From an uncultured Verrucomicrobiota bacterium (GTDB lineage: Bacteria > Verrucomicrobiota > Verrucomicrobiia > Limisphaerales > CAZIFU01): DNA of 64,000 nucleotides. A program made the translations under genes and the position numbers. The stretch is taken from NCBI GenBank assembly GCA_964539075.1, contig CAZIFU010000057.1, positions 22,153 to 86,152 of the forward strand, in the 5' to 3' direction. Shown in pieces: positions 58,233-60,906 of the stretch; positions within the stretch are counted from its first letter, which is position 1; each line of letters begins with the position of its first letter. The notes under the pieces were generated by a model that did not search any database, was not told the origin of the DNA, and was given only the letters and a program-made list of their open reading frames with translations.

Positions 58233-58343
58233 TTACGCGCGGTGGAGCGCAGTATCGGCTAGTGTCTCCGGCTCAACCCACTTCCCGTGTTCACGGATCA
58301 AATCCACGAGGCGTTCCACGGCTTCGGGGTTAAATCGAGTCAT
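58233..58343 (-). other. Displaced duplicate of the ispG 3' end (36-codon remnant ORF)
   Basis: MTRFNPEAVERLVDLIREHGKWVEPETLADTALHRA. 58268-58326 is about 92% identical to 59012-59070, and the shared 19 residues EAVERLVDLIREHGKWVEP are identical to the IspG C-terminus. Confidence 0.8.
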
Positions 58344-58519
58344 GCCGCGAGAGCCGCACGCTTTCGGTGAGTCGTTCGTTTGGGGGCATGAACCAGCCGT
58401 TTGCCGGCCTTGGCTTCCTCACCCCGTACCAACGTGGCGAGCCGTTTCAAATCATAACCACATTCCGCCCCGATTTCATCGCGCACGCGCCAGACTTCTT
58501 TCAACAGATTGTTTTTCAT
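58340..58519 (-). CDS. Small protein (59 aa) downstream of the PIN gene, putative partner/antitoxin
   Basis: My translation: MKNNLLKEVWRVRDEIGAECGYDLKRLATLVRGEEAKAGKRLVHAPKRTTHRKRAALAA. Lies 7 nt after the PIN stop. Its stop overlaps the remnant ATG (ATGA). Confidence 0.5.
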   Translation of the reverse strand: MKNNLLKEVWRVRDEIGAECGYDLKRLATLVRGEEAKAGKRLVHAPKRTTHRKRAALAA

Positions 58520-58526
58520 AAGCAGA

Positions 58527-58997
58527 TTATAGCATCAATTCAAAGGGCGTGCAGATGACGGGCGCAGGGTAGCCCGCCGCTGTGCAGGCCGCACGCACTT
58601 TGTCCACAATGGCAGCGTTGGCAATGTGCCGGCAATTCCAGGTCAACAGAAAGTCCATCCGATGAACCGCCGCCACCGCGATGTGCGCCGCATCTACCGC
58701 CGCCCTGGCAGGCATCAAGCGAGTCGCAAGAATTCTGCGCGCCAAATCCTGCGCCGCCGGTGAATACTCGAGAACTTTACAGCCCGCTAAAACTTCATCC
58801 CTCGCCGTCGCCGCCGAAGCATCGCCCCGGCGCGACTCCGCCAGCACGAGGCCAGACACGAAAAGCTGGTAGTGTTGCCGCCGTTCGTCCCACCAATCGC
58901 GCGTGGCCTGTTGTTGCCCGGCAATCAAAACATCACGACTGGGCCAGGCCGTCAAGAGACTCGGAATCGTTGTTTCAAGATAGACTTTGGGCTTCAC
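58527..58997 (-). CDS. PIN-domain (VapC-like) toxin
   Basis: ORF 156 aa: VYLETTIPSLLTA...DAAHIAVAAVHRMDFLLTWNCRHIAN. The first 23 nt overlap the end of ispG. Confidence 0.75.
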   Translation of the reverse strand: MKPKVYLETTIPSLLTAWPSRDVLIAGQQQATRDWWDERRQHYQLFVSGLVLAESRRGDASAATARDEVLAGCKVLEYSPAAQDLARRILATRLMPARAAVDAAHIAVAAVHRMDFLLTWNCRHIANAAIVDKVRAACTAAGYPAPVICTPFELML

Positions 58998-60906
58998 TCA
59001 ATTTCAACTCCGGTTCAACCCATTTCCCGTGTTCGCGAATCAAATCCACGAGGCGCTCCACGGCTTCGGCTTCAGGGATGTTGAATTTGATCGGCGTTTT
59101 GCCGACGTAGAGGTTGATCTTGCCCGGCGCGCCGCCCACGTAGCCGAAGTCTGCGTCGGCCATTTCGCCGGGGCCGTTGACGATGCAGCCCATGATCGCG
59201 ATCTTCACTCCCTTGAGATGCTCGGTGCGCGTCTTGATGCGCGCGGTGACGGTCTGGAGGTTGAACAGCGTCCGCCCGCACGACGGGCACGCGACGTATT
59301 CGGTCTTGAACGAGCGGCAACCGGCGGCTTGCAGAATGTTGTAGGCCAGCCGCAGCGATTGGCCCGCGCCCGACTCGCCACGAACCAAAATCGCATCGCC
59401 AATGCCGTCGGCGAGCAGCGACCCGATGACGACTGACGCGCGGAGCAAAGCGATCTTTGCTTCAAGCGGCCAAAAATTCCCCTCGCCCGATCCCGCCTTG
59501 CGGGACACCCTCTCCCCATCAGATGGGGAGAGGGACGGGGTGAGGGGTTGCGTCGTCTCAATTCCGAAGTTCAAACAATCCTTCAACAAAATCGGATTGT
59601 TGCGGCCAAGCCGTTTCAATTTCGCGGCGAGCAGACGAAACGCCGTGATGGCCGGCAGATTCACGCCGTCCTGGACCGTGACAAGTTGTGTGTCGCAGTT
59701 CACGACGAAGTCGGTCGTGGGATCCACTTCACAAACATTCAGGTCTTCGTAAATCGCCTCCGGCTTCACGTCGTCCTTCGGGCGAATTCTGGGGGCGACT
59801 TTGTCCCACGTGGCGCGCGTCACGACCACGCGGACGGTTTGTTCGCCGCCACATTTGACATTGTCGTTCAGTTCGATTTCGGGCGTGGCCCGGCGCTCGA
59901 AATGGAACGGGTCGAAGGGAAACGCAGGAGACGACGTGAGGAGGCTCTGATCAATTTCGGATTTTGAAGTGAGTCTCCTTACGTCGTCTCCTACGGTCAG
60001 TTCCGGAATCTGCGCCAACAGATCGCGGCACACTTCGATCTCGCGCGGGCTGTCTTCGGTCAGCGAGACACGGATGGTGTCGCCCAGGCCGTCGCACAGC
60101 AGCGAGCCGATGCCAATGGCGCTCTTGATGCGGCCATCTTCGCCTTCGCCCGCTTCGGTGACACCGAGATGGATCGGGTAATTCCAATCCGGCCCTTCCT
60201 GTTCCAACCGCGCCACCAGCAGCCGGTAGCACTCGATCATCACCTTCGGGTTGGACGATTTCATCGAGAACTTGAAGTTGTGAAAATCGTTCCGGCGCGC
60301 GATGCGGGCAAACTCCAGCGCGCTCTCGACCATGCCCAGCGGCGTGTCGCCGAACCGGTTCATGATGCGGTCGGAGAGCGAGCCGTGGTTGGTGCCGATG
60401 CGCAGGGCGCGGCCAAGTTCCTTGCAGAGCTTCACCAGCGGCGTGAATTTTTCCTCGATGCGCTTCAACTCGGCGGCGTATTGCTCGTCGGTGTATTCCT
60501 TGATCGCGAATTTCTTGGAGTCGGCGTAGTTGCCGGGGTTGATGCGGACCATCTCGACCCACTTCGCCGCTTCCATCGCGGCGTCGGGTTTGAAGTGAAT
60601 GTCCGCGACGATGGGCACCAGGCAGCCGCGCTGGCGCAACCCGGCGACGATGTGTTGCAGATTGGCCGCGTCCTTCACCGTGGGGGCGGTGATGCGCACG
60701 ATCTGGCAGCCGACCGCGACGAGGTCGAGCGTCTGTTGGACGCACTCGGCGGTGTCCATCGTGTCGCAGGTGAGCATGGACTGCAGAACGACCGGGTGGT
60801 CGCCGCCGAGGATGACGCCGCCGCGCGCGGGATCGCCGACCATCACTTCGCAGCTCTTGCGGCGGTGATGGAAGAACGGGGATTGGCAATACCGCATGGG
60901 CATCAC
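58975..60906 (-). CDS. ispG: 4-hydroxy-3-methylbut-2-enyl diphosphate synthase (long form with insertion domain)
   Basis: ORF 643 aa (GTG 60906 or ATG 60903). Motifs VVLQSMLTCDT, IVRITAPT, RINPGN, GVTEAGEGEDG, CPSCGRT, IMGCIVNGPGE. Confidence 0.92.
   Translation of the reverse strand: MMPMRYCQSPFFHHRRKSCEVMVGDPARGGVILGGDHPVVLQSMLTCDTMDTAECVQQTLDLVAVGCQIVRITAPTVKDAANLQHIVAGLRQRGCLVPIVADIHFKPDAAMEAAKWVEMVRINPGNYADSKKFAIKEYTDEQYAAELKRIEEKFTPLVKLCKELGRALRIGTNHGSLSDRIMNRFGDTPLGMVESALEFARIARRNDFHNFKFSMKSSNPKVMIECYRLLVARLEQEGPDWNYPIHLGVTEAGEGEDGRIKSAIGIGSLLCDGLGDTIRVSLTEDSPREIEVCRDLLAQIPELTVGDDVRRLTSKSEIDQSLLTSSPAFPFDPFHFERRATPEIELNDNVKCGGEQTVRVVVTRATWDKVAPRIRPKDDVKPEAIYEDLNVCEVDPTTDFVVNCDTQLVTVQDGVNLPAITAFRLLAAKLKRLGRNNPILLKDCLNFGIETTQPLTPSLSPSDGERVSRKAGSGEGNFWPLEAKIALLRASVVIGSLLADGIGDAILVRGESGAGQSLRLAYNILQAAGCRSFKTEYVACPSCGRTLFNLQTVTARIKTRTEHLKGVKIAIMGCIVNGPGEMADADFGYVGGAPGKINLYVGKTPIKFNIPEAEAVERLVDLIREHGKWVEPELKLSEAQSLS
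59508..59547. repeat. GGGGAGAGGG-type hairpin (same as the MITE termini) in frame inside ispG
   Basis: ccctctccccatcagatggggagagggacggggtgagggg. Encodes QPLTPSLSPSDGERVS on the coding strand. Confidence 0.85.
59926..59992. repeat. Second palindromic element in frame inside ispG (argD-type family)
   Basis: aggagacgacgtgaggaggctc (59926-59947) vs gagtctccttacgtcgtctcct (59971-59992). Shares the core cgacgtgaggaggctc with 10513-10585. Confidence 0.85.

Follow-up and report, generated by a model that had tools for sequence, protein, structure and literature searches.

How a small toxin-antitoxin-like gene pair comes to lie inside the end of an essential housekeeping gene, with a second copy of that end behind it and no visible vehicle, is the question raised by a 64,000-nt stretch of DNA from an uncultured Verrucomicrobiota bacterium (assembly GCA_964539075.1, contig CAZIFU010000057.1, positions 22,153 to 86,152; hereafter the window). 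Here, the 3' end of ispG is present twice, and a gene for a PIN-domain, VapC-like putative toxin and a 59-aa open reading frame (ORF) lie between the two copies. A preliminary description of the locus had taken it for the footprint of an integrase-borne element whose integrase was out of sight. The explanation towards which the present analysis leans, with modest confidence, is that of a recombinase-free PIN cassette with a long target duplication, which is old at ispG, has been exchanged by homologous recombination in the gene end and is probably kept by addiction. Its placement and spread would most likely have relied on illegitimate and homologous recombination in conserved gene ends.

All ispG, PIN and partner features lie on the minus strand, in the order rseP, ispG, PIN gene, 59-aa ORF, ispG fragment and NucS_C-like gene (Table 1; coordinates are those of the window). 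A repeat search delimited two direct copies of 62 nt at a spacing of 742 nt: copy A, the last conserved block of the expressed ispG, and copy B, the displaced block. The preliminary description had made them 2-4 nt narrower and had put their identity at 92%, a value that was reproduced (57 of 62 positions). Its statement that all differences are synonymous was also correct, since the five substitutions all fall on third codon positions and both copies encode EAVERLVDLIREHGKWVEPE. Between the copies, as it had noted, lie the PIN gene and the 59-aa ORF and nothing else, and the cassette adjoins both repeats, with gaps of only 10 and 12 nt. The possibility of a generic repeat was not borne out: the 32-nt core, with up to three mismatches allowed, occurs exactly twice in 64 kb and not once in 100 shuffles, and in a window-wide scan the 62-nt repeat was the sole short-range direct repeat that is not a paralogous protein domain. 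No inverted repeats were found by the repeat search at the cassette ends or within 58233-59075. In addition, promoter, terminator and Rfam scans of the region returned no signal above background and no Rfam match.

The PIN gene starts 10 nt past copy A and within the ispG reading frame, and the cassette is embedded in the rseP-ispG transcription unit. The present ispG tail, LKLSEAQSLS, overlaps the GTG start of the PIN gene by 23 nt and consists of two codons that resemble the start of a native x-K tail (TTG AAA), followed by read-through into the cassette; the distal copy continues as TLADTALHRA, in agreement with the earlier account of both tails. The displaced end reads ...VEPETLADTALHRA followed by a stop, and the NucS-like gene lies downstream of it. 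The short junction between the partner ORF and copy B may be a degenerate continuation of ispG (TTTAAC versus TTCAAC, with a 9-nt gap). As a separate observation, the codons P-E that end the ispG block (CCGGAG in the window, 58997-59013, or CCGGAA) lie 9-10 nt before the PIN start in the window and in the related loci L002 and L003, and from its sequence the CCGGAG at the end of copy A could serve as the PIN ribosome-binding site.

The locus was also compared with that of relatives. Five loci without a cassette (L163, L164, L165, L166 and L168) carry the ispG segment once and end in ordinary tails, and copy B aligns with the ispG 3' ends of L164, L166 and L168 over 61 nt (80-84% identity). These findings agree with the proposal that an insertion in the last codons of ispG left the native end behind as a remnant; a cassette-less relative combining the LKLSEAQSLS ending with a second copy was not found. 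In the comparison with these five empty sites, the left flank aligns along ispG, and on the right the alignment covers only the tail to the stop codon. At the protein level, the IspG of the window matches protein P0001 at 100% identity and Verrucomicrobiota IspG at 82-86%. Conservation reaches ...KWVEPE in all 120 closest relatives listed and is followed by variable tails of 2-20 aa. Among these 120, the LKLSEAQSLS ending is found only in the window's own protein, and TLADTALHRA fits the variable tails in length and character. Neither tail of the window is diagnostic, because both are plausible and the relatives vary past KWVEPE. Tails were accordingly given up as a direct means of identifying the native copy, and the informative tail comparison is that of L086, L167 and L088 only.

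The layout of ispG, PIN gene and partner was found at ispG in at least nine independent assemblies. Both repeat copies together with ispG, the PIN gene and the 59-aa ORF are present in L002, L003, L086, L088, L092/L100 and L167, and partial views consistent with this layout are given by L093, in which the upstream side and PIN start are cut off, and by L001, whose contig ends as copy B begins. In L006 the cassette lies at ispG with no copy B and no repeat. No recombinase was found at any of these at least nine loci or in the window region, as the preliminary description had already noted for the window. In every ispG-linked locus that has copy B, the distance from the partner-ORF stop to the start of this copy is 0-10 nt, and that start lies near the ispG codons N-I-P-E-A; L002 and L092 have a common 6-nt insertion at the edge of the remnant. 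The right-hand junction is therefore of single origin. The sequence downstream of ispG is different in each related locus, with a kinase gene and another PIN gene in L003 and an ATPase-like ORF and DUF3226 in L086.

The proximal and distal tails of these loci provided evidence for exchange between lineages. Full-length proximal tails are found in L006 (EAKEAVVH), L086 (ENKEMAMS), L088 (ENNEMAMS), L092 (EAKEPVAT) and L167 (ENIEMVAS), all with a proximal ispG stop that overlaps the PIN start (GTGA or TTGA); in the window, L002 and L003 the proximal tail is reduced to x-K. In L088, which has a repeat of 89 nt, the proximal tail and the distal tail EQKEMAQI are homologous. L086 and L167 combine proximal tails of the L088 type with the distal tails ELVNA and ELVNT, respectively. 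Furthermore, the IspG proteins nearest to the body of L086 (about 89% identical) end in xVNA, copy B of L086 with its tail shares 97.6% identity with the end of ispG in the cassette-less L166, and the L086 repeat is perfect over 67 nt. Non-homologous distal tails under homologous proximal tails are incompatible with purely vertical descent and call for at least one transfer between lineages, with recombination inside the conserved block. The tails of L086 and L167 indicate that a surrogate ispG end travels with the cassette, and the presence of a cassette next to the gene for P0085 was predicted from the tail ENIEMVAS and then found on its contig, L167. The surrogate C-terminus that the preliminary description had postulated is thus supported by the cassette-linked proximal tails of L086 and L167; for the window itself the idea did not hold in this form, the tail there being mostly read-through and not a foreign ispG tail.

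Two of these loci deserve separate mention. In L167 (ENA ERZ25039529 contig_32224, positions 4876-5350) the PIN gene is frameshifted, the 59-aa partner is intact and copy B carries several replacements, and the locus appears to hold a decaying cassette. In L001 (Logan SRR13378649 contig, positions 1-1250) the PIN protein is 97% identical to that of the window and is preceded by the same ispG tail. The contig has no more than about 165 nt of ispG before the PIN gene, and upstream of them lies the end of an unrelated gene with no Pfam match, for which a suggested GNAT-like identity found no Pfam support. L001 represents either a second insertion stacked in an ispG end or a chimeric contig.

The differences between repeat copies were also examined by codon position. 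In 15 coding repeat pairs, 115 differences are distributed as 24, 12 and 79 over the first, second and third positions. With one locus per target, 48 of 68 differences are at third positions (p = 2e-5 against 45%, an expectation that assumes one copy decaying freely and the other accepting synonymous changes only). The third-position excess over free decay reaches p = 2e-5 to 2e-7, from which it follows that divergence between functional alleles accounts for a large part of the differences. In two genomes with the cassette at gnd, the B copies are alike at 74 of 81 positions and the A copies at 68 of 81. Of the differences in the window, four can be polarised, and copy A is derived at three of them by the nearest outgroup, L001, and at all four by the lineage majority. 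Copy B of the window thus holds the consensus states, which is unexpected for a free remnant (p about 0.001-0.02). On the simplest reading of these sequences, the synonymous changes would have arisen in the expressed copy A or been imported into it by allelic recombination.

The footprint is not confined to ispG. The PIN family comprises 3988 database proteins at E <= 1e-3 and ranges over Verrucomicrobiota, Planctomycetota, Acidobacteriota, Chloroflexota and others. When the 400 nt upstream of the PIN start were aligned with the 150-1000 nt downstream of the PIN stop, flanking direct repeats of 25-230 nt with 83-100% identity were detected at 26 of 123 testable non-redundant loci, whereas among 498 control positions, taken 1.3-2.6 kb away in the same loci, only 5 had them (odds ratio 26, p = 4e-15); an earlier run on a genome set had given 16 of 69 loci and 5 of 352 controls. 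The repeat differs from target to target and is made of local sequence. Targets include sucC (L004), gap (L005, with a repeat of 210 nt including the stop and terminator), an S9 peptidase gene (L052, L065), gnd (L067, L135, with a repeat including the stop), a TIM-barrel-like gene (L118) and several non-coding sites. The comparison of L042 with L076 is instructive: the cassette alone is common to both (719 nt, 81% identical, from 2 nt before the PIN start), and the flanks are unrelated and carry a different repeat in each locus (105 or 230 nt). Cassettes at different targets have no shared sequence outside the two ORFs, and no conserved non-coding termini or att core were found. The orientation and distance of the upstream gene across the family were left unused, as spurious antisense ORFs in GC-rich genomes make the ORF script unreliable.

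Stacked or tandem cassettes were observed in L019/L138, L022 and L031. In L022 (about 720-2280), the end of the upstream gene (79 nt) and the PIN start are repeated before a second, frameshifted PIN gene, as could result either from more than one insertion at the same site or from repeat-mediated amplification. Two of the repeat-flanked control positions hold other two-gene cassettes, namely a DUF433 and DUF5615 pair between 138-nt repeats (L140, about 867-2427) and a DUF7718 protein with a 63-aa partner between 50-nt repeats (L142/L144, about 3105-4692). The N-terminus of this 63-aa partner resembles, as judged by eye, that of the 59-aa ORF. The footprint may extend beyond this PIN family.

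The assignment of the cassette to addiction modules was based on several features of its two products. The PIN gene passes the Pfam PIN cut-off narrowly (E = 3e-5, 25 bits against 23.6). Residues E8, E54, D102 and N121 are invariant and D115 is about 95% conserved (137 and 51 homologues). The AlphaFold model of the protein has a pLDDT of 91.9, and its top fold matches in the PDB are VapC toxins of VapBC complexes (TM 0.6-0.7). VapC-type PIN toxins are, as far as known, RNases. The 59-aa ORF starts 7 nt past the PIN stop, and by tblastn a homologue directly follows the PIN gene in most loci at a PIN identity of at least about 57%; from this position it is presumed to encode the antitoxin. It matches no family in Pfam, NCBIfam or PADLOC, nor is the pair covered by a family-level model of NCBIfam or PADLOC. 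That the two ORFs form a toxin-antitoxin module is suggested by the fold, the size and the conserved pairing. With VapBC type II modules they share the PIN fold, the conserved acidic active-site residues, a small adjacent partner, a high copy number and a patchy distribution; they differ in that the toxin comes first and the partner lacks a recognisable AbrB, RHH, PhD or HTH domain.

Table 1. Features at the duplicated ispG end of the window
Feature	Position	Strand	Basis or remark
rseP	60903-62450	-	upstream of ispG
ispG (IspG/GcpE, 643 aa, GTG start as listed)	58975-60906	-	Pfam GcpE, E = 1.9e-120
Proximal repeat copy A, last conserved IspG block	59008-59069	-	encodes EAVERLVDLIREHGKWVEPE
Current ispG tail LKLSEAQSLS and stop (33 nt past the repeat)	58975-59007	-	translation
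PIN-domain (VapC-like) putative toxin, 156 aa, GTG start (58997)	58527-58997	-	Pfam PIN
59-aa partner ORF, putative antitoxin	58340-58519	-	position after the PIN gene
12-nt junction, partner-ORF stop to copy B	58328-58339	-	read from sequence
Distal repeat copy B, displaced native ispG 3' block	58266-58327	-	aligns with ispG ends of cassette-less genomes
Native-type ispG tail TLADTALHRA and TAA stop (58233-58235)	58233-58265	-	follows copy B
36-aa remnant ORF (MTRFNPEAVERL...HRA, stop), probably incidental	58233-58343	-	ATG overlaps the partner-ORF stop (ATGA)
NucS_C-like gene	57393-58187	-	downstream of the ispG remnant

Taken as a mechanism, the favoured explanation would run as follows. 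The 742-bp unit would be a two-gene, addiction-type cassette of a VapC-like PIN toxin and its presumed antitoxin, set in the last codons of ispG, with copy A completing the expressed gene and copy B, its tail and its stop representing the displaced native end. A rare illegitimate event would have joined the partner-ORF stop to ispG at about codons NIPEA, giving the order ispG 3' block, tail, PIN gene, partner and ispG 3' block; the junction common to the ispG-linked loci points to such an event. Subsequently, the cassette would have persisted for long and been exchanged among related lineages by homologous recombination in the ispG 3' block, as the chimeric tails of L086 and L167 suggest. As to the route, a circle excised through the repeats could have integrated in the Campbell manner, or a double crossover could have used copy B as a portable homology arm. 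Inserts flanked by repeats are normally unstable, and cells that lost the cassette by recombination between A and B would be poisoned, which would preserve the structure.

Several alternatives had to be weighed against this explanation. The arrangement matches that of icd, e14 and icdC, in which a gene extends into an element and leaves a C-terminal pseudogene at its far end (PMC13626634), and the cassette-linked proximal tails of L086 and L167 would suit an integrase-borne element that brought a surrogate ispG end to its attB and was later deleted except for the addictive pair; toxin-antitoxin islets have indeed been proposed to arise by loss of neighbouring mobile-element genes (PMC13617665). 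Such a scar, the form in which the preliminary description saw the locus, is nevertheless improbable and largely refuted: the cassette abuts its repeats, and the same exact deletion would be required in every lineage and at every target. Recombinases are lacking at the ispG loci and at the other targets alike, and cassettes about 80% identical lie at different genes between unrelated repeats with no non-coding core. The family also has no relatives among the phages of IMG/VR and INPHARED, and the vehicle that the preliminary description had suggested seeking was represented only by two distant matches (47% identity) on megaplasmids. A staggered break presents a different case. Here, a host or cassette-linked nuclease would have nicked the target at points 25-230 nt apart, the cassette would have been pasted in between and fill-in would have made copies identical at birth, with every difference acquired later in situ and vertical spread thereafter. 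The geometry is exactly that of a target-site duplication, the perfect repeat of L086 fits it, variable repeat lengths are reported for restriction-modification (R-M) inserts, where breakage is invoked, and decay is visible as non-synonymous changes in the B copies of L005, L065, L092 and L167. On the other side stand the third-position bias, far above the decay of a free copy, the gnd B copies, which are more conserved between genomes than the A copies, the chimeric tails of L086 and L167, which require recombination between lineages, and the repeat-free L006. A VapC-type toxin, being an RNase, is also no obvious source of DNA nicks. A staggered break of this kind, although the leading alternative, is considered unlikely.

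It is very improbable that copy B owes its conservation to a function of its own under purifying selection, whether as a translated 36-aa peptide coupled to the partner or as a 3' processing or terminator signal of the operon, although such selection would account for differences that are synonymous only. An in-frame ATG at or near the partner stop, overlapping it, is present in the window, L002, L003 and L092, no frameshift occurs within any aligned copy B, and in the window it is copy A that has changed from the consensus. However, L086 and L088 have no in-frame start, and copy B has suffered W-to-R, R-to-C, N-to-H and L-to-R replacements in L002, L167 and L092; on these two grounds, translational coupling of the remnant ORF was rejected as a general feature. 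Copy B is also missing from L006, other targets duplicate unrelated sequence, some of it non-coding, and the scans for terminators and Rfam families gave nothing above background. Finally, strain variants of the ispG end might have been mis-joined around the cassette during the assembly of a metagenome-derived genome. The window and nearly all relatives do come from metagenome assemblies, with many cassette contigs of only 1-2 kb, but the same ordered structure recurs with lineage-specific sequence in NCBI, JGI, ENA and Logan assemblies and on contigs of up to 117 kb, and such an artefact is scarcely credible.

Other observations weigh against the favoured explanation, and the quality of the metagenomic data just described is one of them. 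About 80% of the PIN family members have no detectable repeat, and the controls were shifted positions, not other accessory genes, which leaves the specificity of the footprint to toxin-antitoxin pairs unproven. No filled and empty pair with both flanks conserved was obtained from the five cassette-less ispG loci, where downstream synteny is lost. In the KEHNK subclade, divergence is faster among the B copies than among the A copies, as is usual for remnants in decay, and the ispG 3' end is so highly conserved in nucleotides that the identity between A and B is uninformative there; greater similarity within than between genomes was dropped for this reason as proof of independent insertions, except in the window's own lineage. 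Furthermore, cassette divergence (75-89%) roughly tracks ispG divergence (77-88%), and L052/L065 and L004/L007 are collinear over whole loci. Vertical inheritance of one old insertion accounts for most ispG-linked loci, with no current mobility required. The longest perfect run between the copies of the window is 17 nt, a poor substrate for RecA-dependent excision.

Among known systems, the closest parallel to the proposed recombinase-free cassette is found in R-M genes. Their "insertion with long target duplication" involves variable repeats of more than 30 bp, of the order of 100 bp, with no other mobile elements present; the start or stop of a neighbouring gene often falls within the repeats, and the authors proposed a cycle in which insertion is followed by amplification through the repeats and then by release, with double-strand breakage suggested as the common cause (PMC2853133). 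A 2013 review of R-M and toxin-antitoxin systems ascribes this mode to R-M only (PMC3874152), and no report of the footprint for toxin-antitoxin systems was found in the open-access literature. With the R-M insertions (Nobusato et al. 2000, Gene 259:99; Furuta, Abe and Kobayashi 2010) the PIN cassette shares a small killing gene pair with no mobility gene, long direct repeats of target sequence that vary from tens to hundreds of bp, the frequent extension of repeats over a neighbouring gene end, which keeps the gene intact, and the occurrence of tandem or stacked copies. In terms of the definition of Furuta et al. 2010, the window has a pair-only insert of less than 20 kb (spacing 742) and a 62-nt ispG repeat, above 30 bp, that is not multi-copy in 64 kb. 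In contrast to R-M insertions, the cargo is a PIN (RNase-type) toxin-antitoxin pair, for which DNA breakage is no obvious explanation. The repeat copies have in many cases diverged, mostly by synonymous changes, and one proximal tail is demonstrably of foreign origin, a sign of homologous recombination with alleles that had diverged.

The e14 prophage of Escherichia coli K-12, which lies in icd with icdC as pseudogene, is a 15-kb element with its own site-specific recombination and one fixed site (Hill et al. 1989 via PMC13626634). Common to both cases are an insert in the 3' end of a housekeeping gene, a working gene that ends in element-side sequence, a displaced C-terminal fragment at the far end and copies that differ mainly synonymously; excision of e14 is described there as recombination of the two copies. 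An element-supplied 3' end of the gene is found here too (window, L086, L088 and L167), whereas a recombinase and a constant attachment core are not: the PIN insert is a 742-bp unit of two small ORFs that occupies many sites among relatives. In a 2026 study, toxin-antitoxin islets were attributed to mobile elements that had decayed, with subsequent recombination at the core genes on either side, and the mechanisms were called poorly characterised (PMC13617665). The PIN locus resembles these islets as a compact, pair-only insert between core genes that would spread via flanking conserved sequence. It differs in that the islet model neither needs nor predicts target duplication; at the PIN locus, part of the upstream core gene is duplicated, and this duplicate provides homology on the downstream side, where the true flank is unconserved. 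The features of a DNA transposon or miniature inverted-repeat transposable element (MITE) were not found, the cassette ends having no inverted repeat and the duplications varying between 25 and 230 nt, nor were those of an integron cassette, with no inverted repeat in 58233-59075, flanks that consist of ispG sequence and no intI nearby. As a lead only, mitochondria of Allomyces are said to offer a further likeness, reportedly described by Paquin et al. in 1994, in which a free-standing endonuclease ORF with a surrogate atp6 C-terminus is inserted in frame and the original 3' end persists downstream as a remnant; that case is organellar and attributed to homing by a DNA endonuclease.

Some further features were noted in and around the locus. 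The ispG gene itself carries two optional in-frame insertions at palindromic DNA. One (59455-59545) encodes approximately TTQPLTPSLSPSDGERVSRKAGSGEGNFW, is absent from P0012, P0059, P0096 and P0114 and takes a variant form in P0002 and P0011, and the other (59923-59995), with inverted arms of 32 nt, encodes approximately DDVRRLTSKSEIDQSLLTSSPA and is absent from P0096 and P0114. Judged from their sequence, both look like repetitive extragenic palindrome (REP)- or MITE-like elements tolerated in frame in an essential gene; stretches coding for similar GEG/SPS residues occur in ORF translations near 62721-63000. Downstream, the interval 56220-58187 between recO (55237-55929) and the ispG remnant forms a small accessory islet, in which the NucS_C or PD-(D/E)XK-like gene matches the PADLOC candidate PDC-S02 (E = 3e-30) and a Uma2-family nuclease gene (56220-56717) matches PADLOC PDC-S03. 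Between recO and the gene that ends at 55157 there is a run of the heptamer AACATCC with its inverted copy (55197-55292), whose arms are 85-93% complementary and reach 39 nt, and just downstream of recO there is a terminator-like or REP-like inverted repeat of 35 nt (55948-56049; 80% complementary, 32-nt loop).

Altogether, these results bear on the question of how chromosomal toxin-antitoxin pairs enter the neighbourhoods of core genes without a visible vehicle. A recurrent and statistically strong signature was found, consisting of long, variable, local duplications that often involve the 3' ends of conserved housekeeping genes, and it hints at how such cassettes move. It links toxin-antitoxin pairs to a phenomenon known only for R-M systems and speaks against an origin in DNA breakage by the cargo. 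A broader idea, put forward tentatively and with some doubt, is that the PIN pairs of this family, and perhaps small addiction modules at large, are recombinase-free mobile elements, for which a piece of a conserved housekeeping gene, captured in a rare illegitimate event, serves as homology arm in RecA-dependent excision as a circle and in re-integration into that gene in other lineages while the toxin kills the losers. The other two-gene cassettes at two of the control positions give a hint in this direction. If this were true, one mechanism would also cover the long target duplications of R-M genes, and addiction, not DNA cleavage, would be the common cause. For annotation, the findings imply that the C-terminus encoded by an essential gene such as ispG can derive from a cassette and that short pseudogene fragments downstream can mark such events. 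For the family as a whole, the signature makes the mobility of chromosomal toxin-antitoxin pairs experimentally approachable.

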